A DNA stretch of 64,000 nucleotides from Candidatus Latescibacterota bacterium (GCA_965208105.1 OZ242318.1:2432001-2496000), one strand, 5' to 3'; positions 10,852 through 56,383 are shown, counted from the first letter of the stretch. Numbers and translations are program-made. The notes: generated from the letters alone by a model not told the origin.

Positions 10852-12912
10852 TTAATTGGGCCGGCCAAGAGTCTTCTCGATCTTTGCCACAACCCCGTCT
10901 ACATCCCCTATCTGCCCTGTCTGGCTCTCCACGATCATCCCTTCCGGGTCCACCAGAAAATACGAGGGAATGCCGCTCACGTTGTAGACCTTGGCCACCT
11001 CGGCGCCCCAATCGGGGGCGCGCACGTGCACGCCCTGGATCCCATGTTCCTCCACTGCCTTTCTCCAGTCACTCTCTTTCCGGTCCAGGGACAGGTTGAC
11101 GAAAACCACCTGCCGGGCGGCCATTCTTTCCTTGATTTCCTTCAAATGGGGCAAATCGGCGATACACGGCCCGCACCAGCTGGCCCAGAAATCGAGCAGG
11201 ACCACCTTGCCCTTGAACTGGCTCAGCGATACCTGCTGGCCGTCGAGGTCGTGGAGAGTGAAGTCGGGGGCCGGTCGTCCGGGTTGCACCTTGAGTGCCT
11301 TGTCCAGGGCCGCCTGGACGGCCTCGGAGTATTCCGGGTAGGGGTTGATCTGCTGGAAATCTTCCCACTTCCCCCGTACCTCCGCAAAGGCTTCCATATT
11401 GTCTGCGAAGCCATCGATCAACTGTCCGGCCAGAAACCAGTAGAGCACTCTGCCCTCCAGTTTTTCCCGGGCGAGATCGTAATACCTCTCAAACCAGGAC
11501 TTGCCGATCCTGCTGCCGGGTGCGCCATAGATCGAGTCGGCCCTGGCCTGGGCAGCTTCCGACAACCCCAGTTCCGCCAGATCGAGTTTCTCGGACAGTT
11601 TCAGCGGTTTCCGATTTTCGTACATGGAGTCGAGACGGGACCACCCCGATTCCGACAACTTTGATAGATCGAGTCTTTCGGATAGCTTGGGCCACTCTTT
11701 CGCCAGGGAATCTTTGGGCACTTCGAGCGGCAAGTAGAACGCCAGGACCCCATCTGTGGTATCGATCCTCGGCACCTCTTCCTTGCTTGAGGAGGTAATG
11801 CTATAGGATCTGGACTTTTCATAGAAGGAATCCAGGGCCGCCTGGGCAGTCTCCGAAAGACCGAACGCCGACAAATCGAACTGCTGAGACAGCCTGGGGA
11901 GTCTTTTCTTCGCGTAGACCGAGTCGAGCCGTGCCTGGTCTGTCGGCGACAGACCAACCGCTGACAGGTCGACTATTTTCGACAGTCTGGGCCGGCGGCC
12001 TTCCTCCTCGTAGATCGAGTCCAGTCGGGCAAGGATCTCATCCGAAAGCTCCAAGCCCGACAGGTCATAGATATCGGACAGCCCGGAACGATCGACAGCT
12101 TCGGACGCCTCTCTCAACTCCCTGCCCAGAACGCGCTCCACGTAGGTGCGATAGCTTTCTACACCAATGGCCTTTGCGTCGACCAGGGGAACCTCCTCGA
12201 GAAAGTCGTAGTATTCCGGGGTGATATCCCGATTCTCGTGCTCGTTGGCAAAGCGGTAATTCATCGGGTAGGAAAGCATGTATCCAGCCCACTGGTATTT
12301 GATCTGGTAGATCGCATATTCGACGAACCCTGGGCTCAGCGTGTATCTCTCACGCCCCTCGGCCAGAAACTCGAGCTGGTCCCGGCGCCACTGTTCCACC
12401 TGGCGGGAAAAGTCCTCCACCTGCAGACCCTTGTAGTCCGGGCGGAACGAGAAAGGCCGACGGACCCACTCGGCGAAGAAACGGTTGTTGTCCGCGCTGG
12501 GACCGCTGAAGGAGTAGGAGGCACCGAAAAGGCCTTCCTCGGCGACAACGTGCAGACTGTCACCGGGCTCGACGAACAACACCAGGCGATCGTAGTCGAA
12601 GAGGAAGGCTCCGAGCCAGCGCAACCACTCCCATCGAGGTTTCCCGCCATCGTAAGACACCCAAACGTGGGACCCTCGGGTCACAGGCAGCGCGAGGACA
12701 AAATGGTCCAGACTGTCGAGAGCGGCGCGTTGGTGGGAGAGCCTCCGACCCGAAGGCTGCTGGTATGCGAATGTGATTTCCCGCGAGGAAGGGTCGCGGA
12801 TCTCCCCGGTCACCGTTGCCAGTCCGTACTGTCCGCCTGATTCTTCTGCGGCCGGACAGGTGCTCGATGCCATTAGTATGACAGCCACAACACCAAGGTA
12901 TCTATTGTCCAT
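10852..12912 (-). CDS. Large TlpA/ResA-family thiol-disulfide oxidoreductase with internal repeats
   Basis: C-terminal APDFTL..GKVVLLDFWASWCGPC...GIPSYFLVDPEG; signal peptide; five ~29-aa internal repeats. Confidence 0.85.
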   Translation of the reverse strand: MDNRYLGVVAVILMASSTCPAAEESGGQYGLATVTGEIRDPSSREITFAYQQPSGRRLSHQRAALDSLDHFVLALPVTRGSHVWVSYDGGKPRWEWLRWLGAFLFDYDRLVLFVEPGDSLHVVAEEGLFGASYSFSGPSADNNRFFAEWVRRPFSFRPDYKGLQVEDFSRQVEQWRRDQLEFLAEGRERYTLSPGFVEYAIYQIKYQWAGYMLSYPMNYRFANEHENRDITPEYYDFLEEVPLVDAKAIGVESYRTYVERVLGRELREASEAVDRSGLSDIYDLSGLELSDEILARLDSIYEEEGRRPRLSKIVDLSAVGLSPTDQARLDSVYAKKRLPRLSQQFDLSAFGLSETAQAALDSFYEKSRSYSITSSSKEEVPRIDTTDGVLAFYLPLEVPKDSLAKEWPKLSERLDLSKLSESGWSRLDSMYENRKPLKLSEKLDLAELGLSEAAQARADSIYGAPGSRIGKSWFERYYDLAREKLEGRVLYWFLAGQLIDGFADNMEAFAEVRGKWEDFQQINPYPEYSEAVQAALDKALKVQPGRPAPDFTLHDLDGQQVSLSQFKGKVVLLDFWASWCGPCIADLPHLKEIKERMAARQVVFVNLSLDRKESDWRKAVEEHGIQGVHVRAPDWGAEVAKVYNVSGIPSYFLVDPEGMIVESQTGQIGDVDGVVAKIEKTLGRPN

Positions 12913-42184: not shown

Positions 42185-43036
42185 GTGAGCCAGCCATCCC
42201 CCCTCATCTCCGCCCCGGACCTGTCCGCCCACCTGAACGAACCCGACTGGTGCATCCTCGACTGCCGCTTCGCCCTCGATGACCCCGGACAGGGCCGCCG
42301 CGACTACGCCGACGCCCACATCCCCAATGCCCTCTACGCCCACCTCGACGACGATCTCTCCGGACCGGTGGCCGCCGGCAGGACCGGGCGCCATCCGCTG
42401 CCCGCCCCTGCCAGCTTCGGCGCAACCCTTTCGCAATGGGGGATCGATTCGAAGGTGAATGTGGTGGCCTACGACTACGGAGATGCGACCATCGCGGCCC
42501 GGCTGTGGTGGATGCTGCGCTGGATGGGGCACGAGAAAGCCCTGGTGCTGGACGGCGGCTGGTCCGCCTGGCTGGCGATGGGCGGCGCCGTGACCGGCGA
42601 ACCGGGACGCCGCCGGGCGCGGTCCTGCCAGGTGCTTCCCAATCGCGCCATGGTGGCGACGAGCGCCGAGGTGGATGAAATCCGCGGACGCAGCGACTGG
42701 CTGCTGATCGACTCCCGCACCGAGGAGCGCTTCCGCGGCGAATCAGAGCCCATCGACCCCGTCGCCGGCCACATACCCGGCGCCGTCAACGCCCCGTTCA
42801 CGGCCAACCTCGGCAGCGACGGCCGCCTGCTGCCCGCTGCAGGGCTCAGGTCCCGTTTCTCCGGAATTCTCGGAGAGACCGCGCCCGACAGGGCCGTGTT
42901 CTATTGTGGATCCGGAGTGACGGCCGCCCACCAGCTTCTGGCCCTGGCGGTTGCCGGCGTGGAGGGGGCGCGTCTGTACGCGGGGTCCTGGAGCGAGTGG
43001 ATCGCCGATCCCCGGCGGCCCGTTGCCGGTCCGTAG
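42185..43036 (+). CDS. Two-domain sulfurtransferase (rhodanese, SseA-like)
   Basis: HIPNA, ARLWWMLR, LDGG, IDSR...RFRGE.EPID..AGHIPGA, YCGSGVTA, LYAGSWSEW. Confidence 0.9.
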   Translation: MSQPSPLISAPDLSAHLNEPDWCILDCRFALDDPGQGRRDYADAHIPNALYAHLDDDLSGPVAAGRTGRHPLPAPASFGATLSQWGIDSKVNVVAYDYGDATIAARLWWMLRWMGHEKALVLDGGWSAWLAMGGAVTGEPGRRRARSCQVLPNRAMVATSAEVDEIRGRSDWLLIDSRTEERFRGESEPIDPVAGHIPGAVNAPFTANLGSDGRLLPAAGLRSRFSGILGETAPDRAVFYCGSGVTAAHQLLALAVAGVEGARLYAGSWSEWIADPRRPVAGP

Positions 43037-43357
43037 CGATGATGCTGTGGCTGGAAGGACCAAGGTGCCTGGTCTTTGGATACTTTCAATGGCGCAAACT
43101 CCAGGCCGCGGATATCAAGTCAAGCCCAACTACAAATCTTCCCTGGAGTTTCCCCGGTTCGGGGGATAAATCTGGACTTGAAACTTCAAGAAGTACGTAG
43201 CCATTCCATACGTCTTCGATATACAATACACTCTCGAAGTGATTTCAAGATGAGGATCTCTCCATTTTTGGTGAAATTTTGGTGGAATCTATTCCTTCCT
43301 TTGAATTTCGCAAAAAAAGAACTTGACCATTCCATTTTAGTAATCTAACTTCGGTAC

Positions 43358-43435
43358 AAATAAAGGGCGGGGCGCCTTCCACGCGCCACCGCCCCAATAC
43401 TTAACCCTTTCGCAGGAGGGTTAAGTATGTATTCT
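43358..43435 (-). ncRNA. Putative cis-antisense small RNA
   Basis: Minus-strand TTGACT-17-TAACTT promoter (43440-43468), two hairpins, ends in a GC stem followed by TTTATTT. Confidence 0.35.
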
Positions 43436-43534
43436 TTTCAAGTTACAACATCCTCGGGCAGAAGTCAAGCCCAAATTCCTTCCTCCTTCTTTTTATCTCA
43501 AACCACCTTCAGGGTACTTAGCGAGTTGGAATGA
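43427..43534 (+). CDS. Putative 35-aa small ORF (MYSFQVTTSSGRSQAQ...)
   Basis: AGGAGG RBS sequestered in the hairpin ATACTTAACCCT/AGGGTTAAGTAT; upstream TTGACC-17-TAACTT promoter. Confidence 0.3.
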   Translation: MYSFQVTTSSGRSQAQIPSSFFLSQTTFRVLSELE

Positions 43535-44258
43535 CATGGCCAGGCGGGAGACCCACCCCGTCGCGGTCGTGAGGAATCCCGCCCGGCTTCTGTAGGGTTG
43601 AAGGATAAAGGGGAAACCTGTCATTTCATTTCAAAAAGAAGGGACCTATCGTGAAAAGCATAAAGAACCACCTGCCCAGAGAATGGGTAGGAATCAGCGT
43701 AATCCTGTGCTTTCTCGCCATTCTGTGTATGACTCTAAGCGTTCTCAATATCTGGGGATGAAGCGAAGACTATCCGTCCAGGGAACGCTGCTGGGATCCA
43801 GAATCTTCAAGGAAAAGCCCGTGGCCAAATCCATAGCCGGTCGTCCAATCTTCTCAATGGAATGGACGAGCAGGGACTTATGGCCGCCATTGGCAGCGCC
43901 GGGAACATGAAAAAGTACCCACAAGTGGCTGCTTTGGTGAGCAACGGCTACATCCGCTTGAAACTATTTTGATGAGGTGGCGCAGTTATGCAGTTAGAAC
44001 AACAAGACGGCGGAGTTGGGGAGATTCTTATCAGGCTCTCAGGAGTTGCCAACAAGCTGACCCTCCATTCAAGCACAGGATTGAAGCTATCGACATTGGA
44101 GGGCTGCTTCCTGAGAAATTCAAGGGGGACACTTTCCACATGGAAGCCCTCCTGCAAGTATCTGGGTCTTTCTACAGTCTCCAGAAATCGCAGGGCAAAT
44201 GGATGCAACGCCTAACAGAGAGATCACAAATTTTATCAACAAAAGTAAAAATTTTAAG

Positions 44259-44801
44259 ATGTTGTATTTTATGAAGTTTATCAAGAAAATTTGTATTCAC
44301 TGCCTGGGTTGCCTGGTCATTGGTTTGATAGTGATCCTTAACCTCTCCTGTTCGCCTCCCAGTACCAGGCAATCGGCGCCGGAGTTCGTCTTTAAGAATC
44401 TGAATGGCGAGCCAATTTCGCTGAATTCGCAACGCGGAAGGATTGTGCTGCTCAATTTTTGGGCTACCTGGTGTTCTCCATGCAGACAGGAACTGCCAAT
44501 ACTTATTGACATTTTTAACAAATTCTCCGGAAAAAACTTCAACGTGTTGGGGGTGACGCTAAACTCCGGTGAACTTGCGATAGACCTTTGGATTGAAAAC
44601 TTCAAGGTCCCCTATCCCATTCTGGTGGCCAATGACACTGATAAAGAAATCCTGGACCAGTATGGTGTGGATAAGGGGATCCCAAGATCCGTTCTCATCG
44701 ATCGCGAGGGGTATATACACAAAACATACCGAGGGCTCATCGAGCTCGATGAATTTGAGAAGGACATCGACAACCTCCTGACCATGGAAAAGAAAATTTG
44801 A
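44259..44801 (+). CDS. TlpA-family thiol-disulfide oxidoreductase (lipoprotein)
   Basis: APEF.FKNLNGE.ISL..RGRIVLLNFWATWCSPCRQELP, GIPRSVLIDREG; lipobox-like LNLSC; start uncertain (44199/44259/44271). Confidence 0.88.
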   Translation: MLYFMKFIKKICIHCLGCLVIGLIVILNLSCSPPSTRQSAPEFVFKNLNGEPISLNSQRGRIVLLNFWATWCSPCRQELPILIDIFNKFSGKNFNVLGVTLNSGELAIDLWIENFKVPYPILVANDTDKEILDQYGVDKGIPRSVLIDREGYIHKTYRGLIELDEFEKDIDNLLTMEKKI

Positions 44802-47614
44802 GTCCGCCGATGCGAATTTTACTCCAACCTGCTCTCCACGTGCTTGGATGCATCATGCTCGCCGGTTGTACACCCGAACCCAAATTGGATAATGTGCGTC
44901 TCAGCTATTCGGTTCGGTTGGGTCCGGCTGGTTCCGATACGGTCTCGGTCGCCCTGAGCACCAGTGGTTTAAAAAACGAAAGCGTTCTTTTGAGGAGTTA
45001 TGAACCTCGGAATTTCATGCGTCTTTCAGGTCTTGAAGTTTTCGACTCCGATGGGAGTCGGATTCTCCATGAAACCATCGAGACTTATCCCGGCGGCTCC
45101 AAAGAGCCTCTGCTGCACTACCGCCTTACTCCGCCAGATCACAAAGAGACAAGGGTAGTCTATCGGGTGCGACCAGGCATGCAGATCGGGATGAAGCACG
45201 GCAGACATCCTACCCATGTCAGTGGCTACCTTGGCGAAGATTTCGGGCTGATATCTGGACGCAACCTCTTTCTTGTCCCGGATGCCCCTCTCGGTTTCGT
45301 GGAAGTCGAGGTCACAGCCCCATCCTCTTGGAGGGTAGTCAGCACCTGGCCGCAAATCTCGGAGACCAGCGAAGGTAATGCAGTTTTCCAGCCCCGTATC
45401 TTCGAAACACGAAAGCCAGAGGATCTGGTCAACGGCCTGCTTGGCCTTGGAAAGCTCGTCACCTATGAAGAAGAGGTTGAGGGCGCGACAATATCCGTTT
45501 CGGTTTACGAACGATGGCCGGAGCATTTCAGGCTGCACTTGGCTCGAAGTGGTTTCGCACTTTACCGCAATATTGCGACCATTTTCGATTCCCAGATCAA
45601 AGATCCCTACAACTTGATTTTTACCCCCAAGGGACCAGGAGTCCCCAGCATTGCGGTTGCTGCAACCGGTCATGGAAATGGCCGGGAAATGTGGCCGGCA
45701 TCGAAAGGCCGCTGGATCTCAGCAGCTGAAGAAATGGCCTATCGCTGGCTCCGCTATCTTCCCCACAGGATGGAGTTCAAGGTTGCAGATGATATGTGGT
45801 TCATCGACGGCACCGCCATGTATCTTGCTCTCCAAGCCTGTGAGGACGCAGGGATCATTGACGGCATCCGTCCGTACCTGGCAGAATCTTACCGTTCGTA
45901 CAACAGCAAGCGGTTGCGTTCGTTCACCGAGGATAAAACACCGGTTCCAGCGCGTCTCTACGACCAACCGGACCGGATCACCAAAGACCGAGGCCGGCGA
46001 ATTGGTCCTGCTCTGGCGCACCATTTAGATATGCTGATTCAAAGCCATTCGAATCGAAAATTCGATCTGACTACTGTCCTGAAACACGCAATGAAGAAAA
46101 GAGACAACTTATCCTTGCGTAATCTGGTTGCCGACGCGACGGGATTCGACCCGGAGGGCTTCTTCGAGCGGCATATCCACCCTCAGACCATGCCTATTAT
46201 CCCGTTGCATTTCACAAGTTCAAGCCTCCCGCTTGAGCCTGTGGTCCCACGTCTACCTCTATTTCGTTCGGGGAATGCAGCCGTGGTGGATACCATTTCT
46301 CTGGTCCTTACCGGCAAGACACAAGGTTATCTCGAGGCGTGCGGCTGCAAATTCAACATGTCGGGAGGTATCACGCGCCGTGCCCGACTAATCAGCCAGA
46401 TCCGGGAACGACGCCCCAATGTACTGGTACTCGACGCGGGCAATGCTTTCCCGACGGAGCAGGATGTTCCCTACATGGACAACCTGACATCAGCCGAGAT
46501 AGATGCTTACCTGGAGGCCATGAGATTAATGGGCTATCGCTTCGCCGCGATCAACGAGTACGAGCTGTACTATGGTGGCGAATTTCTGAAATCCAAGGTT
46601 GAGAGCACCGGATTCCCCTTTCTCGGCGCCAACGTATTCCACGGTGGGAAGCTTATAGCCGCTCCTGCGGTCTCGGTCCGGGTAGCCGGTTATCGCATCG
46701 GCTTTGTCGGTATCCTGGAAACCCAGGCCCGGTTCGAGCCTGGCCGCTTCGGAGACAATACCTCGGATATTGTCGTTGGGGATCCGATAACCGCAGTGCG
46801 ACAGTATCTCCCCGGGATCACCGAACGCAACGACTACGTGGGTGTCATCGGTGGTTTCAGCAAAGACCTGGTCTACAAACTGGTTCAGGAATTTCCCGAA
46901 CTCGACCTGGTTATCAATACCGGTCCGCACTTCAATATCACCGAAGACATCCTGAACGGAAGAGTAGTCCTCAAAAAGGATGTCCTCTATGGTTTTCTGC
47001 AAAACACGTTGGTGCTATACGCCGAAGGGGGGGTTTACGGTCTGCATCATGTCGACATCGGAGTCGACCAAAATGGACAACTTGGAAAAGTTGACATCAA
47101 CTATTTCGAAGTGGAGCGGCGAATCGAAGAAGACGAAGAAATGCGAGTTTTCCTGAACCGATTTTATTCAGACATGGCGAGTCGGGAGAGTCTGGTTTCC
47201 GGTCAGGTGGAACCCCTCTTCCGGTGGGATGACGTTCACGACCGCGGGTCCTACGTAGGCACGAATAAATGCGCGACGTGCCACGTTGGCCAACACCGGC
47301 AATGGTCGGCGACAGGCCATTCCACCGCCTACAAAACCCTGCTGGCCGTGCATCGCCAGTATGCTCCCAAGTGCGTCAAATGCCACGTGGTTGGCCTCGG
47401 CCGGTTATCGGGATTTGACATTTTGGAACCGAGCATGGATCTGGCCAACGTGCAGTGCGAGGTCTGCCATGGACCGGGCGAGCATCATGCACAAAGCCCG
47501 TCCAGCGCCAATATCAGGCGCAGTCCGAGTGAAGAGACCTGTACTGAGTGTCACAACCCTGAGCACGACGATGATTTCGACTATCTTCGAGATTGGAAGA
47601 TAGTGAGCCACTGA
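44798..47614 (+). CDS. Lipoprotein fusion: M61-peptidase-like, UshA-like metallophosphoesterase and tetraheme cytochrome c domains
   Basis: Lipobox LAGC; M61-like N-terminal half (WFIDG..Y; HExxH position reads EEMAY); GYLEACGC..GGITRR, LVLDAGN, PFLGAN, RIGFVGI; heme motifs CATCH, CVKCH, CEVCH, CTECH; TTG overlaps the tlpA stop. Confidence 0.75.
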   Translation: MSPPMRILLQPALHVLGCIMLAGCTPEPKLDNVRLSYSVRLGPAGSDTVSVALSTSGLKNESVLLRSYEPRNFMRLSGLEVFDSDGSRILHETIETYPGGSKEPLLHYRLTPPDHKETRVVYRVRPGMQIGMKHGRHPTHVSGYLGEDFGLISGRNLFLVPDAPLGFVEVEVTAPSSWRVVSTWPQISETSEGNAVFQPRIFETRKPEDLVNGLLGLGKLVTYEEEVEGATISVSVYERWPEHFRLHLARSGFALYRNIATIFDSQIKDPYNLIFTPKGPGVPSIAVAATGHGNGREMWPASKGRWISAAEEMAYRWLRYLPHRMEFKVADDMWFIDGTAMYLALQACEDAGIIDGIRPYLAESYRSYNSKRLRSFTEDKTPVPARLYDQPDRITKDRGRRIGPALAHHLDMLIQSHSNRKFDLTTVLKHAMKKRDNLSLRNLVADATGFDPEGFFERHIHPQTMPIIPLHFTSSSLPLEPVVPRLPLFRSGNAAVVDTISLVLTGKTQGYLEACGCKFNMSGGITRRARLISQIRERRPNVLVLDAGNAFPTEQDVPYMDNLTSAEIDAYLEAMRLMGYRFAAINEYELYYGGEFLKSKVESTGFPFLGANVFHGGKLIAAPAVSVRVAGYRIGFVGILETQARFEPGRFGDNTSDIVVGDPITAVRQYLPGITERNDYVGVIGGFSKDLVYKLVQEFPELDLVINTGPHFNITEDILNGRVVLKKDVLYGFLQNTLVLYAEGGVYGLHHVDIGVDQNGQLGKVDINYFEVERRIEEDEEMRVFLNRFYSDMASRESLVSGQVEPLFRWDDVHDRGSYVGTNKCATCHVGQHRQWSATGHSTAYKTLLAVHRQYAPKCVKCHVVGLGRLSGFDILEPSMDLANVQCEVCHGPGEHHAQSPSSANIRRSPSEETCTECHNPEHDDDFDYLRDWKIVSH

Positions 47615-47716
47615 AATCGCGGCGGAGAAAGGAGACCATTTTATTGGCTTCAAAGCAGATCTGCCCATGTCGATCGGTAGGACGGTTAGCTCACACCTAA
47701 ATTCGGAGGAAGAATC

Positions 47717-47947
47717 ATGTCGCGTCGACTCAAGATAATTGCAGCTACCATGCTCGTTTTGGGACTGACCTACTTCATTCCTGCCACCAATCAACCAAAC
47801 AGCACCTACTCCGTGCTCGACCCAGTCTTGGTTGAACGGGCTGAAGCAGGTTATTGGAAAACGAACTATGTCTGCGTAAGTGGGGAGTATTGCGAGAGCA
47901 GTCCAGGTGAGTTCTGCTATTATATCGATCCGCTGCATTGCTACTAA
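47717..47947 (+). CDS. Small secreted Cys-rich peptide, copy A
   Basis: GGAGGA RBS; Sec-type leader ending VERAEA; core GYWKTNYVCVSGEYCESSPGEFCYYIDPLHCY; paralog at 51547. Confidence 0.85.
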   Translation: MSRRLKIIAATMLVLGLTYFIPATNQPNSTYSVLDPVLVERAEAGYWKTNYVCVSGEYCESSPGEFCYYIDPLHCY

Positions 47948-48019
47948 AGGCAAACAACTCACTTGAGGAAAGCTGTGGTGGTTTCTCCAGGTGAACGGCG
48001 GGTCGATCAGAGCACAATC

Positions 48020-48056
48020 GAGGGTCGGCAGCATGGCTGCCGACCCTCCTATTCTT
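48020..48056 (+). terminator. Stem-loop between peptide A and large protein A
   Basis: GAGGGTCGGCAGC-ATG-GCTGCCGACCCTC followed by a weak T-rich tail; conserved in module B. Confidence 0.5.
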
Positions 48057-48103
48057 TGTCCAATGGTTGCACTTATTACCAACAAGAAAAAAGTTGTACA
48101 AGG

Positions 48104-51040
48104 ATGAATTCCACAACCTGCTTGCGGATTTCTCTTTTCCTTCTAGTTATGAGTACCATGTTGGTCGAGGCTATTCCACCTCAGCGCGTAAGACTACCGG
48201 AGGTGACTCCTGGGCAATTCTACCTCAGAGCATCCCTGCCATCCTACCGCAACTTCGCATTTCAGCCCTACACCAACTACCCAGGGCACACAGCCTCTCG
48301 CTCTTCCGGGGTTCCGTATTCCGACTCGCCACGAGCCCTTTTCAACTCCATGGGAGATTATCTCGCCACAGGGTACGATCTCTACGACTGGAACGAGAAG
48401 CGCAATTCGGAAGCATCGTCCAAAAATGGTCAAATCTTTGGTAGCTCCATCTATAAAAACTCCAGGGATTTTACCTGGGCCTTTGGTGACCTTGTCGTGG
48501 CTCGAGACAGTCAGGGTTCGTGGGGATATAGTGCGATCGTGGGGGATGGCCTGATCGCGCGGTTTACCCCGCTCACTTTGTCCAGGGTCGATTTTGATGG
48601 GGTACGATTGGATCTGACCACCCCTTCGCTGCATGCCACCTTGCTGGGTTCTCGCCCGGAGCGTCCGGGAAATAGCAAGGCCATTGCCAAATGGATCGTT
48701 GAAAATACCGAGTATGCGGATGATTCTCCGCTGCTCCTGGGCGGCCGCTTGCAGGGAAACCTCGGCAGGTTGCAACTAGGAATGACCGGGGTCAACCTGC
48801 ACATGTTCCGCAGCACGGCGAGCGACAACACCCTGAAGGGCGTACTGCGCCCCAGCCAGCCTCTCATCGCATGGGTTCTCTTTCGTTTCACCGACGATTC
48901 TCCCACAGACGGTCGCGGAGGAGCCGTGGTCCAGGACCCCGTGCTCATTGTCAACGGCGTGTCCAGGTCCGACCTCCAGGCGCAGGTGATTCGCCATCGG
49001 GCAGGTACCCCATCACAGGTTGGAACCGTCTCTCAAGCTACCGGTGAATTCCGCCCTACTCCCTACTACGTTTTTCGCAGCAGTGTCGGTGGTTTTGAGT
49101 ACGCTCGTTTTTTCCGGAACCGGGAAATTCCTTTGTACGCCGACTATCTCTACCTCATCGACCACGATCGCGGGAAGGACGTGAGCAAGGATACCAACCT
49201 GGAGGAGTTGCTCAATCTGTTTAAGGTAGAGAAACCCAGCCGGATCCTGCATGCCAACGGTGACGACCAGCTTATCTACCTATTCGACGTTTCCCAAGAG
49301 CCCTACATCGAATCGGTGAAACTGGAGGTTGTTCTGTCCAACGACTACAAAGTCGACGTGGCTACCCTGATAGACGAGGACCTCCGCGCGCCCAAGCGCC
49401 ACGCCCAGTTCAAGACAACCTATTACCACACGACATTGCGGGCTAAGGGCAACGTCCAGGACCGCTCCAACCTTCAACGGGTGAAACTGCATGTCGGAGA
49501 GAACACTGCCCTGTTCACCTACAGCGCCGATGCTCATCTAAGCCTTGTGGGTATGGACGTGCATGGAGAAGTGGCTCGATCACGGCGCTACTCCCGCTAC
49601 CCGGCCGAAGCCGCAGAGACACCTGTTTTTGAAAGGGGTGCTCGCTCCAACGATAGGGGAACGGCCTTCTACATTAATGCCATTGGCAAACTGAGCCGAG
49701 GCCGCTTGGGGCTGGAGTACTTCTCTATGCAGCCGGATTTCACCACCGAGGTTCGCTACCATCTTCCCGCCGATGCGGACCATACTCAACGCCATCTTCG
49801 CGGTGTGAGGAACCGCACCATGTACTGGAAACTCGTGCAGGACAACGATGACGGCGACCGATTCGCCGATACGCGCGTAGGCCAACCTCTGAGGAATATC
49901 CCCGATGGTTCGACCACCGACCCCGACGGGGTTTTCCCCGGCCGCGACGAGGACCGAGACGGGATTCCTGACACCAATCGCAACTTCAACGGTATTCCCG
50001 ACTACGAGGAACCATTCCTTATCTTCGACGTGGAACCCAACGAGTATGTTTATGGATTGGACCGCAACCATAACGACGAGCCGGATGTCCGCGAAGACGA
50101 TCTCCATCCCGACTATCCCTACTACCCCGACCAGAAAGGATATCACCTTTTCCTGCAGCTCGGACCGAGGTCCGGGTGGTCGGCGGGCATCGGCCGCTAT
50201 GCGGTGGAGGAAATCGCCGGTGGCGGGCGCAATCGCTCCACCTATGCCCTGCTAGCCTTCCGCGCCAGGGGTACCAAGGAGCACTGGCGACTCTTTCTTG
50301 AAAACCACCTGCGGCGGGTTGAAGACGATATTGCCGATGAGTTCGGCGTTCAAGTGGAGCAACCCCAGACCGGCCTCGAAGAGATCCCCCTGGTCTTCGT
50401 AAGCCAGATCCAGCCCGACCCCCTGTTCTATCGGGACAGTTACGTCAACGAGACCTATCTCGAAGCGGAGCTGCAGCCGTGGTCCGCCCTGCGGTGGGTG
50501 AACAAGTGGCGGCTACGGCTCAACTGGCAACAGGGTGGAAACCGACAGCGCGCCAGAAGGCTGGACTACTGGACCCTGGTCCAGCGCGCCGAGTATTCTG
50601 CAACTTGGGGAAAGTTAAAGGTACGGCCGCAGTGCAAAGTCTTGCTCCTGCATCACGTGGACCAGGATGCGGACCGCCTGATTACCGGTGCCTATGCCCG
50701 TCGCACCTTGCGCTCAGAACTCAGCCTCATCCCCATTTTGCGCATCGAGTATCCCATTCTCCGGCGCACCACCTTGAGGATCGGGGTGCAAGGTTGGGGG
50801 CCGCTTCCCTACCAAAGGCATGACCGGGTACGGGAGCGCAACAATCTCGAGCGCCGCACCGCCTTTGCCACCCTTGCCAACCGCTCCGTCTACCGCGGAT
50901 ACGATCTTCACACCATCATCGGTCTCAAAGGGGACAGCATGGACTACAACAACCGGTTGCGGCGGGGAGAGGAGTACGATACCTGGTCGTTCTTTGTGCG
51001 TGTCTTGACCGGATTCACCGAGTTCGGACCACTCATATAG
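48104..51040 (+). CDS. Large secreted / outer-membrane protein with Asp-rich Ca-binding-like motifs, copy A
   Basis: Signal peptide, DNDDGDRFAD / DEDRDGIPD / NFNGIPD / DRNHNDEPD motifs, amphipathic beta-strand-rich C-terminus; paralog at 52051. Confidence 0.75.
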   Translation: MNSTTCLRISLFLLVMSTMLVEAIPPQRVRLPEVTPGQFYLRASLPSYRNFAFQPYTNYPGHTASRSSGVPYSDSPRALFNSMGDYLATGYDLYDWNEKRNSEASSKNGQIFGSSIYKNSRDFTWAFGDLVVARDSQGSWGYSAIVGDGLIARFTPLTLSRVDFDGVRLDLTTPSLHATLLGSRPERPGNSKAIAKWIVENTEYADDSPLLLGGRLQGNLGRLQLGMTGVNLHMFRSTASDNTLKGVLRPSQPLIAWVLFRFTDDSPTDGRGGAVVQDPVLIVNGVSRSDLQAQVIRHRAGTPSQVGTVSQATGEFRPTPYYVFRSSVGGFEYARFFRNREIPLYADYLYLIDHDRGKDVSKDTNLEELLNLFKVEKPSRILHANGDDQLIYLFDVSQEPYIESVKLEVVLSNDYKVDVATLIDEDLRAPKRHAQFKTTYYHTTLRAKGNVQDRSNLQRVKLHVGENTALFTYSADAHLSLVGMDVHGEVARSRRYSRYPAEAAETPVFERGARSNDRGTAFYINAIGKLSRGRLGLEYFSMQPDFTTEVRYHLPADADHTQRHLRGVRNRTMYWKLVQDNDDGDRFADTRVGQPLRNIPDGSTTDPDGVFPGRDEDRDGIPDTNRNFNGIPDYEEPFLIFDVEPNEYVYGLDRNHNDEPDVREDDLHPDYPYYPDQKGYHLFLQLGPRSGWSAGIGRYAVEEIAGGGRNRSTYALLAFRARGTKEHWRLFLENHLRRVEDDIADEFGVQVEQPQTGLEEIPLVFVSQIQPDPLFYRDSYVNETYLEAELQPWSALRWVNKWRLRLNWQQGGNRQRARRLDYWTLVQRAEYSATWGKLKVRPQCKVLLLHHVDQDADRLITGAYARRTLRSELSLIPILRIEYPILRRTTLRIGVQGWGPLPYQRHDRVRERNNLERRTAFATLANRSVYRGYDLHTIIGLKGDSMDYNNRLRRGEEYDTWSFFVRVLTGFTEFGPLI

Positions 51041-51365
51041 TGGATTCAGCCGCTGCTTTTGCCAGGATGTCGCGCTCGGTGTGCAACTGCTTGATCTGGC
51101 GACGTAAGCGTCGTATTTCGGCGCGTTCGGAGGTGGTCAAGCCATCGTGGCGCCGGCCGCTGTCGAGGTCGGCCTGTTTTACCCAGGTGTGGATCGTCTG
51201 AGCGGAGGGCCCGAACTCTTTGGCCAAGGAGCCTGGCGAGCGTCCGGAGCGGACCAGATCGACCATCTGCTGGCGAAATTCGGGGGGATAGGGAATACGT
51301 GATTTAGGCATGGGGGGCTCCTTTTCATCAAGTGATAAGGTACCCGCCAAACCGGGTCAACTCCA
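51041..51365 (-). mobile_element. Truncated IS3-family element (left IR and orfA)
   Basis: End TGGAGTTGACCCGG; orfA MPKSRIPYPPEFRQQMV.LVRSG...ERDILAKAAA cut at the orfA/orfB junction; no DDE orfB. Confidence 0.88.
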
Positions 51366-51444
51366 GACCTGTACTGAGAGTCACAACCCTGAGCACGACG
51401 ATGATTTCGACTATCTGCGGAATTGGAAGATAGTGAGCCACTGA
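51366..51444 (+). pseudogene. Duplicated 3' tail of the multiheme fusion gene
   Basis: Copy of 47536-47614 (TCTESHNPEHDDDFDYLRNWKIVSH*; CxxCH lost); similarity continues to about 51498. Confidence 0.88.
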
Positions 51445-51546
51445 AACCGCGGCGGAGAAAGGAGACCATTTTATTGGCTTCAAAGCAGATCTGCCCATGC
51501 TATCTACAGCACTGTTAACCCACCACGAAAATGGGAGGGAAAAACC

Positions 51547-51771
51547 ATGACTCGTCGACGCAAGATCATAGCCGCTACCATGCTCGTTCTGGGTCTGACT
51601 TACTTCATTCCGGCAACCAACCAACCAAACAGCGCGTACTCCGTGCTCGATCCAATCTTGGTTGAACGGGCTGAGGCAGGATGGCAATTCCATAAGATCT
51701 GTCGGTCGGGTAGCTGCTGCCCTGAACAAAATGAATTCTGCTATGAAGTCGATGAAGATACGTGCTATTAA
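51547..51771 (+). CDS. Small secreted Cys-rich peptide, copy B
   Basis: GGAGGG RBS; leader nearly identical to copy A; core GWQFHKICRSGSCCPEQNEFCYEVDEDTCY. Confidence 0.85.
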   Translation: MTRRRKIIAATMLVLGLTYFIPATNQPNSAYSVLDPILVERAEAGWQFHKICRSGSCCPEQNEFCYEVDEDTCY

Positions 51772-51963
51772 AGTCGAGTAGAGCTGAAGTCACTACGTGT
51801 GGTCGAAAGTCTCTACCGCCGGAGATATGGCACAACCTTCCATTTTTGTTATTCCAGGGTGCACCTATTTTAATTGTTGACACCAATCGCCTTTCGATCA
51901 GGGGAAATGATGTCAACAATTTCTGGTCCCGGAACTAACGTTCACCAAGCGCAGGCGCGCCTT

Positions 51964-51995
51964 GGAGGGTCGGCATATACTGTCGACCCTCCTTT
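51964..51995 (+). terminator. Stem-loop between peptide B and large protein B
   Basis: GGAGGGTCGGCA-TATAC-TGTCGACCCTCC-TTT. Confidence 0.5.
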
Positions 51996-52050
51996 ATGAG
52001 ATAGTTGCAAAATAGTGCGCGTTTTGCAAACAGACAGGATCAGTCCAGAC

Positions 52051-54981
52051 ATGCACTCTACAACCTGCTCGCGGCTTTTCCTACTCACCGTCGTTTGCTA
52101 TTCCATACCGACCCAGGCAACTCCGCCCCAGAGCGTCGAATTACCCGAGGTAATTGCCGGACGTTTCTATCTGCAGATGCCGCGGCCGGCCTATCGCAAC
52201 TTCGCCTTTCAGCCCTACACTAACTACCCAGGCCATACCATGTCGCGCTCCACCAAGTTGTACTCGGACGCACCGCAAGTCTTTTATGGAAAAATGGGGG
52301 CCTTTCTTTTCACAGGCTACGATCTCTATGCCTGGTCTGAACGACGCGAGCCTCAACCCGTGGCCGCAAAGGGTCGGCTCTACGGTAGTTCCATTTTCAG
52401 GAACCGCAGTGTATTTGAATTCGCCTTCGACAGCCTGGTTGTAGCTCGGGACAGTCAAAGTTCGTGGGGATACAGTGCGATTGTGGGGGATGCGCTGATC
52501 GCGCGGTTTACGCCGCTGACCTTGTCCAAGGTCGATTTTGATGGGGCCCGGTTTGACCTGGCCACCCCCTCGCTGCAAGCCACCTTGCTAGGTTCCCGCC
52601 TGGAGCGTCCGGGGTTTACCCTGGGACTGGCCAGGTGGCTCGTGGATGACACCGAGTTTGCGGATGATTCCCCGCTTCTCCTGGGCGGCCGCCTACAGGG
52701 AAAACTCGGCAGATTGCAACTCGGATTGACGGGCGTCAACCTTCACATGTTCCACAGCACCAGGAGCGGCAACAGCCTGAAGGGCGTGCTGCGCCCCAGC
52801 CAACCTCTCATAAGTTGGGTCCTCTTTCGATTCACCGACGACTCTCCAGCAGACGGTCGCGGCGGAGTCGTAGTCCAGGACCCCGTGCTCATTGTCAACG
52901 GGTTGCCCCGGTCTGACCTCCAAGCGCAGGTGATTCGCCATCGGGCAAATGCCCCCTCCCAGGTTGGAACCTTCTCTCAAAATACCGGTGAATTCCGCAC
53001 CACTCCCTATTACCTTTTTCGCGGCAGGGTCGGAGTTTTCAACTACACTCGTTTTTACCGGAACCGGGAAGTACCCTTGTACGCCGACTATCTCTACCGC
53101 ATCGACCACGCCCGCGGGAAGGACGTGAGCGCGGACACCAATCTGGAAGGGTTGCTCCGTCTGTTTCGGTTAGAGCCATCCAACGGGATCCTGCGGGCCG
53201 ACGGTGACGACCAGCTCGTCTACCTGTTCGATCTTTCGCAAGAGCCCTACGTCGAATCAGTGGCACTGGAGGCCCTGCTGGCCAACGACTATAAGGTAGA
53301 TGTGGCTACTTTGGTCGACGAAGACGTCCATGCCTCCAAGCGCCACACTCAGTTCAAAACGACCTATTACCACACGGCGCTGAGGGCAAGGGGCAACGTG
53401 CAGGACCGCTCCAATCTGCAACGGGTGCGACTGGAGGTCGGCGAAAACACCGCCCTGTTCACCTACAGCGCCGATGTCCACCTGAGCCTTGTGGGCATGG
53501 AAGTGCATGGAGAAGTGGCCCGCTCGCGGCGCTACTCCCGCTATCCGGCCGAAGCCGCAGAGAAACCATTTTTTGAACAAGGCCCGCGGTCCAGCGAAGA
53601 GGGAATGGCCTACTTCGTAAATGCTACTCGAAATTTTGGTCACATCCTCTTGGGGTTGGAGTACTTCTCGATGCAGCCGGATTTCACCACCGAGGTCCGC
53701 TATCATCTTCCCTTAGAGGGCCAGTTTTTTCAACGCCACGTCCAAGGTGTGAAAAATCGCACCATGTATTGGCAACTGGTCCAGGACAACGACGACGGCG
53801 ACCGCTTCACCGATACGCGCGTAGGTGACCCGTTGGATATCTCCGATGGCTCAACAATCGACTCCGACGGGGTTTTCCCGGGCCGTGACGAGGATCGCGA
53901 CGGTATCCCCGATACAAATCGCAACTTCAACGGGATACCCGACTACGAAGAACCCTTTCTCATGTTCAACGTGGAACCGAACGAGTACGTCTACGGGTTG
54001 GACCGCAACCACAACGACGAGCCGGATGTCCGCGAGGACGATCTCCGTCCCGACTACCCCTACTATCCCGACCAGCAAGGATATCATCTCTTCCTGCAGT
54101 TCGGACCCCGGTCCGGGTGGTCGGCAAGTGCAGGCCGTTACGGGGTCGAGGAGGTGGCCGGGTTTGGGCGCAATCGCTCCACCTATGCCCTGCTGACCTT
54201 CCGCGGCAGGGACACCAGGGAGCGCTGGCGCATTTTCCTTGAAAACCACTTGCGACGGGTTGAGGACGATATTGCCGATGAGTTCGCCGTTCAGGTGGAG
54301 CAACCCCAAGTGGGCGGCGACGAGGTTGCGCTCGTCTTCGTCAGTCAGATCCGGCCGGATCCCCTGTCCTACCGCGACAGCTTTGTCAACGAGACCTATC
54401 TCGAAGGGGAACTGAAGCCCTGGTCCACCCTGCGATGGGTGAACAAGTGGCGGTTGCGGGTCAACTGGCAATCGAAGAGAAACCGTCAGCGCGCCAAAAG
54501 ACTGGACTACTGGACCCTGGTCCAGCGCGCCGAGTACACTGCGACTTGGGGCAAGCTCAAGGTACGGCCGCAGTGCAAAGTCTTGCTCCTGCATCACGTG
54601 GACCAGGATGCGGACCGCCTGATTACCGGTGCCTATTCCAGCCGCACCCTGCGCTCGGAGCTCAGCCTTATCCCCATCCTGCGCATCGAGTATCCCCTTC
54701 TCCGGCGTACTACCCTGCGGCTTGGGGTGCAAGGTTGGGGACCGTTGCCCTACAAGAGACATGACCGGGTACGGAATGGCAACAATCTCGAGCGCCGCAC
54801 CGCCTTTTTCACCCTGGCCACACGCTCTTCCTACCGCGGATACGATCTTCACACTATCATCGGTATCAAAGGCGACAGCCAGGACTACGACGACCGGTTG
54901 CGGCGGGGAGAGGGGTACGATACCTGGTCGTTTTTTGTGCGGGTCTTGACCGGATTCACTGAGTTCGGACCACTCATATAG
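52051..54981 (+). CDS. Large secreted / outer-membrane protein, copy B
   Basis: Full-length colinear paralog of 48104-51040 with the identical C-terminus DTWSFFVRVLTGFTEFGPLI. Confidence 0.78.
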   Translation: MHSTTCSRLFLLTVVCYSIPTQATPPQSVELPEVIAGRFYLQMPRPAYRNFAFQPYTNYPGHTMSRSTKLYSDAPQVFYGKMGAFLFTGYDLYAWSERREPQPVAAKGRLYGSSIFRNRSVFEFAFDSLVVARDSQSSWGYSAIVGDALIARFTPLTLSKVDFDGARFDLATPSLQATLLGSRLERPGFTLGLARWLVDDTEFADDSPLLLGGRLQGKLGRLQLGLTGVNLHMFHSTRSGNSLKGVLRPSQPLISWVLFRFTDDSPADGRGGVVVQDPVLIVNGLPRSDLQAQVIRHRANAPSQVGTFSQNTGEFRTTPYYLFRGRVGVFNYTRFYRNREVPLYADYLYRIDHARGKDVSADTNLEGLLRLFRLEPSNGILRADGDDQLVYLFDLSQEPYVESVALEALLANDYKVDVATLVDEDVHASKRHTQFKTTYYHTALRARGNVQDRSNLQRVRLEVGENTALFTYSADVHLSLVGMEVHGEVARSRRYSRYPAEAAEKPFFEQGPRSSEEGMAYFVNATRNFGHILLGLEYFSMQPDFTTEVRYHLPLEGQFFQRHVQGVKNRTMYWQLVQDNDDGDRFTDTRVGDPLDISDGSTIDSDGVFPGRDEDRDGIPDTNRNFNGIPDYEEPFLMFNVEPNEYVYGLDRNHNDEPDVREDDLRPDYPYYPDQQGYHLFLQFGPRSGWSASAGRYGVEEVAGFGRNRSTYALLTFRGRDTRERWRIFLENHLRRVEDDIADEFAVQVEQPQVGGDEVALVFVSQIRPDPLSYRDSFVNETYLEGELKPWSTLRWVNKWRLRVNWQSKRNRQRAKRLDYWTLVQRAEYTATWGKLKVRPQCKVLLLHHVDQDADRLITGAYSSRTLRSELSLIPILRIEYPLLRRTTLRLGVQGWGPLPYKRHDRVRNGNNLERRTAFFTLATRSSYRGYDLHTIIGIKGDSQDYDDRLRRGEGYDTWSFFVRVLTGFTEFGPLI

Positions 54982-55312
54982 TGGATTCAGCCGCTGCTTT
55001 TGCCAGGATGTCGCGCTCGGTGCGCAACTGCTTGATCTGGCGACACAGGCGTCGAATTTCGGCGTGTTCGGTGGTGGTCAAGCCATCGTGGCGCCGGCCG
55101 CTGTCGAGGTCGGCCTGTTTTACCCAGGTGTGGATCGTCTGAGCGGAGGGCCCGAACTCTTTGGCCAGGGAGCCTGGCGAGCGTCCGGAGCGGACCAGCT
55201 CGACCATCTGCTGGCGCTGGCGAAATTCGGGGGGATAGGGAATACGTGATTTAGGCATGGGGGGCTCCTTTTCATCAAGTGATAAAGTACCCACCAAACC
55301 GGGTCAACTCCA
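54982..55312 (-). mobile_element. Truncated IS3-family element, second copy
   Basis: Near-identical to 51041-51365 and truncated at the same nucleotide. Confidence 0.88.
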
Positions 55313-55427
55313 AATGCCAAAAAGGAACCTCCAACGTCTGCTGGAGGAGACGTGCGAGCGTCGACTTTCCTGCACTTGATGCGCCGTTGATGAGAATGAT
55401 CTTGCCCTGTTCTCGATCGTTATCCAA
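55313..55427 (-). pseudogene. N-terminal fragment of a chloramphenicol phosphotransferase-like P-loop kinase, cut by IS3
   Basis: Minus-strand translation LDNDREQGKIILINGASSAGKSTLARLLQQTLEVPFWH ends exactly at the IS end. Confidence 0.7.
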
Positions 55428-55467
55428 GTGTATCAAGAATCCTATTTCAGCGTTCTTTGACCCAATT

Positions 55468-55559
55468 CACATAACGGTTTCACGGTTTACGAACCTGCGT
55501 AGCGGGTTGCCGAAGGCCAAGGAGCGCAGCGACGAAGCGAAAACCGGACGTGTTATGTG
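55468..55559 (-). other. Integron attC-like recombination site
   Basis: Minus strand CACATAAC...CGGTTTTCG...CGTAAACCG...GTTATGTG: complementary R boxes and near-complementary L boxes, 14 bp after the GNAT stop. Confidence 0.7.
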
Positions 55560-55573
55560 TTCGGGCGATCTCT

Positions 55574-56383
55574 TCATTCAAATTTGCCAAATGCGATCTT
55601 GTAACTGTACGGATCAATAAAGCCCAGTTTCTCTGCAACTCTAATCGAGGGCTTGTTGTCCTCCCAGCAGTCCCAGTACGGACTCAACCCCAGTCCTTTA
55701 GCTTGTCTCGCTACCTGGGCGCCAACAGTAGTAGCGATGCCTTTACCTTGATAGTCCTCTATCGTTTCGATGCCCATCCCACAGTGCTTCTCGCTCACAT
55801 ATTCCGATGTGCACCAACAGATAACTGAAGTTCCATGCAGCATTGCGAATCCAAATCCCCGCTCGAGAAAGGTATCGATGGACGGCCAGCCACCCAGAAT
55901 CTCGTCGAACACCGAGTCAAGATGACCAACTTTGCTATCAAGGAGCTGTCGATCTATTTGCCGTAGGGAAAACCCCGTTGGGACAACTGGAAAGCTGGCC
56001 GGCGACCTGTCGGAAAGGGCACAATAGATCCTCCTATCGACGTTTTGCTCGAGCGGACCGAAAACAGTGTCGATTATCGAGCTCCAGATTTCCGGTGAAT
56101 AGTGCAACTTGAAGAAACCGATTCCACGCGAGCGGCATTCAGGTGCGATCTCGGCTGAGAAGATCTCTGCAAGTTGCCTGTTCGTCTCTTCGTTGTTGGC
56201 CGCGCCAGAGAGGTGGATATTCCGGCCTTCGTTGGCTAGCACAGTGTTTGGCCTGAACGGGTCGTCTACCCACACTCTCGCCGGGGTCAGCCCCAAAATG
56301 ATACTGCTCCCAACCAGACGGAAGATCGGTGTGTCAAGGAGCGGTTGGATCGCGGCAAGATGCTCATGCTCTAGCTGTCTCAT
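55574..56383 (-). CDS. GNAT-family acetyltransferase (likely gene cassette)
   Basis: GFGF...CTSEY..GIET.EDYQGKGIAT...YWDC.EDN.PSIRVAEKLGF. Confidence 0.85.
   Translation of the reverse strand: MRQLEHEHLAAIQPLLDTPIFRLVGSSIILGLTPARVWVDDPFRPNTVLANEGRNIHLSGAANNEETNRQLAEIFSAEIAPECRSRGIGFFKLHYSPEIWSSIIDTVFGPLEQNVDRRIYCALSDRSPASFPVVPTGFSLRQIDRQLLDSKVGHLDSVFDEILGGWPSIDTFLERGFGFAMLHGTSVICWCTSEYVSEKHCGMGIETIEDYQGKGIATTVGAQVARQAKGLGLSPYWDCWEDNKPSIRVAEKLGFIDPYSYKIAFGKFE

Follow-up and report, generated by a model that had tools for sequence, protein, structure and literature searches.

Within a 64,000-nucleotide (nt) stretch of the genome of a Candidatus Latescibacterota bacterium (GCA_965208105.1, OZ242318.1:2432001–2496000; hereafter the window), two genes, A and B, encode small, presumably exported peptides that share a nearly identical leader of 44 amino acids (aa), followed by a short, strongly diverged core framed by cysteines. 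They lie in tandem behind a gene for a predicted 938-aa haem lipoprotein, p938, and this pairing recurs: across 168 genomes of the phylum, seven of seven p938-type genes have a peptide gene of the same family next to them. Judging from sequence, we rate the chances as about even that these genes specify a leader-guided system of exported, disulfide-rich mini-proteins, ribosomally made as leader plus core and genetically coupled to p938. The evolutionary mode is already known from Cys-rich peptides of animals and from ribosomally synthesised and post-translationally modified peptides (RiPPs); what is new is the family and its strict pairing with p938.

Leader conservation and core divergence in peptides A and B

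The initial annotation of this DNA had described near-identical leaders, and peptides A and B indeed differ at only 4 of 44 leader residues (2 S/T, 5 L/R, 30 T/A and 37 V/I). The core frame read at that time, C-x-S-G-x-x-C ... E-F-C-Y-x-x-D-x-x-x-C-Y, also fits both peptides, with four Cys in A and five in B. The suggested comparison of substitution rates, carried out on this pair, showed a leader under purifying selection, with 13.0 synonymous and 4.0 non-synonymous differences (synonymous divergence, dS, 0.53; non-synonymous divergence, dN, 0.042; dN/dS about 0.08), whereas the 30 alignable codons of the core gave a dN of 0.73 with saturated synonymous sites (proportion of synonymous differences, pS, 0.79). 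Core dN is at or above the dS of the neighbourhood. A leader that has accumulated 13 synonymous but only four replacement changes is old and selected, and not the product of a fresh duplication; A and B are the sole copies in the 4.85-Mb genome. Secreted proteins usually evolve fastest at the N-terminus, and the leader/core pattern seen here is the opposite. In the pair of ~980-aa proteins encoded after the two peptides (dS 0.57, dN 0.14), the first 100 codons are the fastest (dN 0.33, against 0.05–0.24 for the rest).

Along the two cassettes, identity changes stepwise, from 96% upstream to 87% in the leader and about 50% in the core, followed by a spacer that is unalignable except for a hairpin and then by about 75%, which makes the region a mosaic. 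The 120 nt upstream (47537–47656 versus 51367–51486) are identical at 115 positions, including a dead gene tail, and the next 60 nt at 42.

A rare family with a common design

A single-sequence search of 5.8 billion proteins returned only peptide A, its orthologue P0002 (82%) and the orthologue of peptide B, P0003. Profile searching of 1.84 billion representatives gave 13 matches, of which eight are small proteins of the same design and the other five long proteins; three of these were inspected and proved to be repeats, P0006 and P0011 lying outside that inspection. With the 13-sequence profile, 22 clusters were retrieved from the 5.8 billion proteins, and matches were located in 4 of the 168 Latescibacterota genomes, namely that of the window (G000), G016 (three loci), G026 and G032. 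One incomplete sequence (P0009, 65 aa) was excluded from the alignments. For two of the metagenomic peptides, P0025 and P0020, the longest contig equals in length that of P0042 and P0043, respectively, and these pairs may share contigs. Neither Pfam nor NCBIfam gave a meaningful match for any of the 27 members, and A and B matched no family at E ≤ 0.01; on these searches the family is rare, undescribed and lineage-restricted. Among the candidates discarded, a match in G063 (E 0.0027) was unrelated on inspection, and one in a Myxococcota metagenome-assembled genome (MAG) was a LysR-type regulator with a chance T-Y-S-V-L-D-P-V-L-V, the other genome-contig match being the true locus in G026; a pattern scan of metagenome contigs matched 42 stretches, none of them a relative.

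The precursors begin with a basic N-end, a hydrophobic helix and a polar linker of S, T, G and P, continue with a pro-segment, (P/A)-Y-(S/A)-x-L-(D/E)-x-h-h, and reach an A-x-A after three to five further residues. A Sec signal peptide cut by signal peptidase I would have a short c-region with small residues at −3 and −1 after its n- and h-regions; the peptides do have a basic N-end, a hydrophobic helix of 15–19 residues and the conserved A-x-A, but the A-x-A is placed 21–27 residues past the helix. The alignment of 27 sequences has Tyr31 and three Cys in every member, and Leu34, Ala44 and a fourth Cys in almost every one; the long segment between helix and A-x-A, singled out earlier in A and B, is therefore conserved throughout the family, as 20–27 residues between the hydrophobic part and the core with an invariant Tyr and an A-x-A end.

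Cores are 30–48 residues long and follow the spacing C-x3-C-x5-7-C-x7-9-C-x6-10-C-x4-6-C. Six Cys are present in 17 members and seven in 6, while the four window-type sequences have four or five; in all 27, a Cys lies within seven residues of the C-terminus. By comparison across the alignment, the four-Cys frame of the window type appears to be a derived form of a six-Cys frame, a relationship that the initial annotation had missed. Since the first and last Cys are jointly absent in the window type, a single clade, they may pair with each other in the six-Cys forms. AlphaFold2, run with the family alignment, predicts for peptide A a helix at residues 3–19, a disordered pro-segment of low confidence and a small beta-sheet at residues 51–76 (predicted local distance difference test, pLDDT, 84–90), with strands at 47–54 and 58–71; a Foldseek search of this model against the PDB gave no match.

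Of 351 pairs, 323 have the higher identity in the leader, with a mean of 0.40 there against 0.25 in the core (0.13 without the shared Cys). This pattern, in which a single family has conserved leaders and variable cores, is the generic one of RiPP precursors. With homologues added, leaders still exceed cores and the Cys frame is kept, so the picture first drawn from A and B alone holds. Two of its terms need tempering. Cores do change faster than leaders, but 'hypervariable' overstates the case, as an orthologous core can be stable (0.97 identity between B and P0003) and the Cys frame is retained throughout; similarly, the faster divergence of the cores stands, but positive selection, and with it the diversifying selection that had been proposed, is inseparable from cassette exchange. 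Separately, one member (L052 1003–1755, + strand, in G016; also P0034) has a normal leader and a core that departs after the second Cys and holds three Cys only; present in two sources, it may be a real variant and not a broken gene.

Coupling of the peptide genes to p938

The pairing with p938 occurs in two gene orders. In the window, the peptide gene follows p938 after 103 nt, and at L054, L055 and L056 after 50–146 nt, whereas at L042, L043 and L053 it lies 1.6–3.4 kb upstream of p938 in the same orientation. At the G032 locus and at two loci of G016, the peptide gene comes first, followed by one to three genes for a secreted protein of ~320 aa, then by the thioredoxin and p938. Full-length relatives of p938 within the bacterial family are found only in G000, G032 and G016. 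A phylum-wide search with the N-terminal domain added G148, G047 and G162, from two other families, and in each of these a small open reading frame (ORF) 3' of p938 has a signal-like N-end, G-P-Y or S-P-Y, an A-x-A and six Cys. When the 634 frames of the three loci are scored with the family profile, these ORFs come out first in two cases and second in one, L055, where the top frame is a second peptide paralogue of that genome. The leader motif is common to three bacterial families.

In the structural model of p938 (mean pLDDT 71, high in the N-terminal domain), residues ~30–470 are predicted to adopt an M1/M61 aminopeptidase fold (Foldseek, 4fgm 1.4e-20, 7xyo 1.1e-18 and 8j9c 2.2e-17, over ~460–490 columns), with Pfam M61_N reaching 0.0063, under the cut-off. 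The HExxH motif is absent from this domain in all 10 homologues, which carry A-E-E-M-A-Y-R-W or similar in the equivalent helix, indicating a dead peptidase fold. Residues ~485–790 resemble 5'-nucleotidases (Foldseek, CD73 4.3e-15) and include E-A-C-G-C-K at 513–518; its C-G-C-K is kept in 10 of 10 homologues and appears to be the Cys form of the C-x-U motif of the UshA-like (seleno)proteins of NCBIfam NF041198. In the available portions of two papers (PMC2398784, PMC13188914), the UshA-like family is listed as a CxU selenoprotein with no function given. The C-terminus of p938 holds four CxxCH haem sites (825, 859, 887 and 915) and matches cytochrome c554. The extra dead-aminopeptidase domain of ~470 residues is present only in peptide-linked genes, and p938, as the conserved genetic partner, could read the conserved leader. 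A complex prediction for p938 (25–938) with the peptide (22–76) scored 0.02 without controls and was used neither for nor against this idea. At L043 (about 7720–8154, G016), the p938-type gene lies in two overlapping frames, which is a frame break or an assembly error.

Directly upstream of p938, the window encodes a thioredoxin-fold protein that matches Pfam AhpC-TSA (4.2e-23) and Redoxin (5.1e-20) as well as NCBIfam ResA (8.2e-31) and TlpA (1.3e-20), the latter two under their curated cut-offs. It has the W-C-x-P-C motif, as W-C-S-P-C, and a hydrophobic N-terminus that would serve as an anchor. A homologue adjoins the peptide and p938 genes in five of the seven loci.

In genus g16, the peptide gene is immediately followed by the gene for the ~320-aa secreted protein, of which there are one, two or three intact copies along with fragments (L042 6903–9977, − strand; L043 8780–9763, −; L053 8302–9333, +; L044 6814–11289, −); this protein matched nothing in Pfam or NCBIfam, and the genome of the window holds only a 25%-identical relative, elsewhere. 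A gene for an NHL-repeat beta-propeller lies directly 5' of the p938 homologue at L054 (7096–8244) and L056 (7304–8299), with glycosyltransferase genes further upstream.

A replicate in another family and polymorphism between strains

In G047, from another bacterial family, two paralogues lie 10 kb apart. Their leaders are identical at 46 of 49 residues (dS 0.42, dN 0.036), and six Cys are nearly all that their cores have in common (dN 0.455). Both flanks are conserved, with 98 of 111 positions upstream (L055, about 1180–1290 versus 11075–11185) and 111 of 156 downstream, so divergence is focused on the core and does not mark the edge of a decaying duplication. The pattern of conserved leader and diverged core has thus arisen independently in G047.

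Public sequencing runs that contain the window stretch or close relatives are labelled sponge metagenome and come from at least two studies. In run X7, a contig of 3,786 nt joins the 3' end of p938 (47400–47669, 6 differences) to peptide B (51538–51915, 5 differences), and peptide A has no cover at all. In run X8, one contig matches the p938 tail at 96% identity (9 differences in 237) but falls to 79% across peptide A (65 differences and 5 gaps in 311), and run X5 has the same arrangement as the window. The contigs of X7 and X8 indicate that the slot behind p938 carries different peptide alleles in close strains.

These data bear on the alternative that A and B are ordinary small secreted or membrane proteins whose leaders resemble each other through recent duplication or gene conversion, with an incidental link to p938. 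The 96% identity of the 120 nt upstream, dead gene tail included, does point to recombination or conversion, an insertion sequence (IS) remnant lies between the copies, and the whole cassette, together with that remnant, sits in a stretch of low G+C content (51–57% at 43–55.5 kb, 43100–55500, against 60–69% in the flanks), possibly an acquired or recombination-prone island. The leader, however, is old and selected by its excess of synonymous changes (13 at dS 0.53, against 4 replacements), its motif is retained across three bacterial families, p938 adjoins in seven of seven cases, over two gene orders, and G047 supplies the independent replicate. We regard this alternative as already disfavoured and highly improbable.

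A possible maturation route and alternatives to it

For the leader-guided system, we propose a sequence of steps that fits these genes. The peptide would be exported by Sec through an N-terminus of signal or signal-anchor type, and p938 would then grip the precursor by the conserved leader segment, likeliest in its peptidase-like domain, which would bind the peptide. Disulfides of the core would be set or shuffled, or another oxidative cross-link made, by the thioredoxin together with the C-G-C/haem module, with electrons passing to the haems. After cutting of the leader at A-x-A, a stable beta-hairpin core would be released outside the cell as a fast-evolving effector, for example an antagonistic or a host-interaction peptide.

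The same redox neighbourhood admits a different role for the peptide, as a thiol-bearing substrate, carrier or small subunit of a periplasmic p938 redox enzyme, its leader being only an export or anchor signal. Analogies exist in SoxY, which works with SoxB (an UshA-family enzyme), SoxXA cytochromes and SoxS/W thioredoxins, and in the Cys-rich small subunit of methylamine dehydrogenase with MauD and the dihaem MauG. Such a role would account for the strict pairing in seven of seven cases, for the C-G-C and four haem sites of p938 with a thioredoxin adjacent in five of seven loci, and for the Cys within seven residues of the C-terminus in 27 of 27 aligned members; several members with an odd number of Cys (five or seven) would have a free thiol, and the thioredoxin weakly matches MauD (E 0.0023). 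A docking subunit is, however, expected to be conserved, whereas here the core evolves fastest and the leader slowest, the core varies between close strains, and one p938 stands with two different cores both in the window and in G047, where the peptides have long acidic tails with the last Cys 18–21 residues from the end. We consider a carrier role possible, if rather unlikely.

It is very unlikely, in our estimate, that the peptides are true RiPPs in which p938 installs a modification other than a disulfide, such as a haem-dependent cross-link or a quinone on Tyr, Trp or Cys, with the leader bound in the dead-peptidase domain. Cys is the sole invariant residue type of the core, and Pfam scans of the 18 larger ORFs at 35–64 kb of the window, and of related loci, found none of the radical SAM, YcaO, LanB/C/M or RRE domains. 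This is set against the leader/core architecture, a conserved enzyme-like neighbour with redox cofactors, a dead peptidase fold that could act as recognition module, and the aromatic residues common beside core Cys, all of which a RiPP would explain.

Several observations weigh against the leader-guided system itself. Peptide genes without a p938 neighbour occur in G026 and at L044 of G016, and peptide B follows a dead p938 tail in place of an intact p938 of its own. The thioredoxin is absent at two of the seven loci and, taken alone, could simply serve cytochrome c maturation of p938. Although the C-terminal half of p938 matches NF041198 at 5.8e-71, its 239.6 bits fall short of the cut-off of 275. 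The scanned ORFs of the window include no dedicated protease, transporter or classical RiPP enzyme. The hydrophobic segment and the A-x-A are 21–27 residues apart, a long way for signal peptidase I, so that the N-terminus might stay in the membrane as a permanent anchor. Finally, the mosaic of A and B fits recombination or cassette swapping equally well as fast evolution of the core, and positive selection on the core is unproven, with 30 codons only and saturated synonymous sites.

A bolder version, unlikely in our view and offered tentatively, is that sponge-associated Latescibacterota make a new class of leader-guided, secreted peptides, disulfide-rich or oxidatively cross-linked, whose leader would sit in the dead aminopeptidase domain while the core is oxidised by a C-G-C wired to four haems; maturation would be coupled to the respiratory electron chain, and strains would differ in their core effectors, which would be swapped as cassettes. 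If this were true, cysteine-bridged peptides like those isolated from sponges would have a possible origin in bacterial symbionts.

More generally, the pairing of conserved pre-pro regions with hypervariable cores framed by Cys typifies venom and defence peptides of animals as well as RiPPs, and this evolutionary mode is seen here in an uncultured bacterial phylum. The peptides also point to sponge symbionts as a new place to look for compact scaffolds rich in disulfides. The combination of a dead M61 fold, an UshA-like C-G-C and a tetrahaem end matches no known peptide-maturation system, and the leader-guided system offers a testable role for two groups listed as 'function unknown', the UshA-like (seleno)proteins and the peptidase-like pseudoenzymes.

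Comparison with known systems

The peptide family and its pairing with p938 were not found in Pfam, NCBIfam or the literature searched, a search that covered articles but not their supplements; the available part of a paper on sponge Latescibacterota MAGs mentions only generic RiPP-like clusters, and its supplements might list such clusters. In architecture, animal peptides are among the nearest likenesses. According to the available text of two reports, the Cys-rich MgCRP-I peptides of mussels combine a conserved pre-pro region with a diverging, Cys-framed mature part (PMC4558851), and the second report covers sponge barrettide precursors and contrasts conserved recognition parts with hypervariable cores (PMC12426817). 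In conotoxin superfamilies, MgCRP-I and barrettides, as in the present family, the signal and pro regions are conserved and the mature peptide that follows diverges fast, the Cys frame alone being fixed, often as six Cys forming three disulfides. Unlike these, the peptides described here come from bacteria, have a gene linked to that of a haem lipoprotein and match no solved structure in sequence or fold.

The initial annotation had likened the precursors to the NVEALA type of Bacteroidetes (PF14055), but membership of that family is not supported: none of the 27 members matches PF14055 even at E ≤ 1, and the aligned leaders lack the NVEALA motif, although both are small proteins from the same bacterial superphylum (PF14055 being a Bacteroidota family). 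A literature search for NVEALA returned no paper. Feature-based look-alikes of the peptide in the Atlas scored 0.81–0.86 and serve as leads only; one cluster (0.81) carries NVEALA on 14% of its members.

Among bacterial systems, sublancin is a disulfide-containing bacteriocin with a thiol-disulfide oxidoreductase, BdbB, in its operon, and such bacteriocins resemble the window in placing a small exported Cys peptide gene beside one for a thioredoxin-fold oxidoreductase. They differ in that the leaders here end in A-x-A and have no double-glycine motif, that no C39 peptidase or ABC exporter was found among the scanned window ORFs (a MacB-type permease lies 4 kb away at one distant locus only), and that the invariant partner is p938 and not the thioredoxin. 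NF041198 shares with the C-terminal half of p938 the C-x-U motif, here as C-G-C, and a cytochrome end; p938 differs from it by the additional N-terminal domain and by its sub-threshold score. MauA, with MauD and MauG, and the gamma subunit of quinohaemoprotein amine dehydrogenase are small Cys-rich subunits that need maturation. These, too, are small Cys-rich polypeptides with a long leader, encoded alongside a thioredoxin-like and a c-type haem protein, and in those systems the haem protein acts on the polypeptide; in contrast, the cores here are variable, and there is no adjacent gene for a large catalytic subunit, a radical-SAM or a flavoprotein partner.

Organisation of the window

In the window, a single p938 gene is followed by a tandem of allelic cassettes, A and B, separated by the IS remnant and a dead p938 tail (Table 1). 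Hairpins after both peptide genes fold well (hairpin A, −28.1 kcal/mol, z −5.6; hairpin B, −25.4 kcal/mol, z −3.6; none of 200 shuffles as good in either case) and are consistent with a short, separately dosed precursor transcript.

Table 1 Features of the window and its two peptide cassettes, in order of position.
Feature	Position	Strand	Remarks
Window	G000:C1:2432001-2496000		Part of a single-contig genome, 4.85 Mb
ResA/TlpA-like thioredoxin-fold thiol:disulfide oxidoreductase, 200 aa	44199..44801	+	W-C-S-P-C; stop overlaps p938 start
p938 lipoprotein gene, 938 aa	44798..47614	+	L-A-G-C lipobox
Conserved 5' region of peptide A (p938 3' end and intergenic)	47537..47716	+	
Peptide A ORF, 76 aa	47717-47947	+	GGAGG-like ribosome-binding site a few bases upstream
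Peptide A leader, 44 aa	47717..47848	+	Basic N-end, hydrophobic helix, polar linker, Y-S-V-L-D-P-V-L-V, A-E-A
Peptide A core, 32 aa, 4 Cys, with stop codon	47849..47947	+	
Terminator-like hairpin A	48020..48048	+	13-bp stem, then T-rich tail
~980-aa protein A	48104..51040	+	Member of expanded Latescibacterota-specific family
Transposase orfA remnant (HTH_Tnp_1, Pfam 1e-7)	51033..51350	-	Between cassettes A and B
p938-copy 3'-end remnant, last ~25 codons	51367..51444	+	tblastn 68% over 38 aa
Peptide B ORF, 74 aa	51547-51771	+	GGAGG-like ribosome-binding site a few bases upstream
Peptide B leader, 44 aa	51547..51678	+	
Peptide B core, 30 aa, 5 Cys, with stop codon	51679..51771	+	
Terminator-like hairpin B	51964..51992	+	Stem sequence related to hairpin A
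~980-aa protein B	52015..54981	+	78% identical to protein A

Between paralogues, the ~110–120 nt 5' of the peptide genes have changed less than the synonymous sites of the leader, in the window (115/120) as in G047 (98/111), and may be a promoter or 5' untranslated module travelling with the gene, or a recombination handle. A structured RNA is unsupported, since these regions fold no better than shuffles (z 0.64 and −0.98); Rfam gave no match in 43000–56000.

Over the transposase orfA remnant (51033–51350), the summed contig depth is far above that of the surroundings in all four runs compared, marking a repeat common in these communities. Outside the cassettes, 36793–39708 (− strand) encodes a secreted protein of 971 aa with no Pfam match and, by eye, an H-E-M-R-H motif and an aromatic last residue.

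The ~980-aa protein family

The ~980-aa protein downstream of each peptide gene was considered as a partner of the peptides and rejected. The genome holds 34 copies, of which two follow a peptide gene; a third copy (78% identical) and a sister-species orthologue have no peptide alongside. The family is present in 76 of 76 genomes of the bacterial family, against four with peptides, which argues against a partnership, and no ~980-aa gene lies within 10 kb of the peptide genes at five related loci (L042–L045 and L053). The 34 copies share 40–100% identity, are often in tandem and belong to no Pfam family; this is a large expansion specific to Latescibacterota. Protein A matches SlpA_C at 6.3e-5, under the cut-off, and DUF6029 is another weak beta-barrel lead for the family, so these proteins may be beta-barrels, as a lead only. 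The genes 5' of two paralogues elsewhere in the genome (2302500–2302900 and 4547600–4547900) end in a domain of ~90 residues that may be akin to the C-terminal sorting domain known from substrates of type IX secretion.

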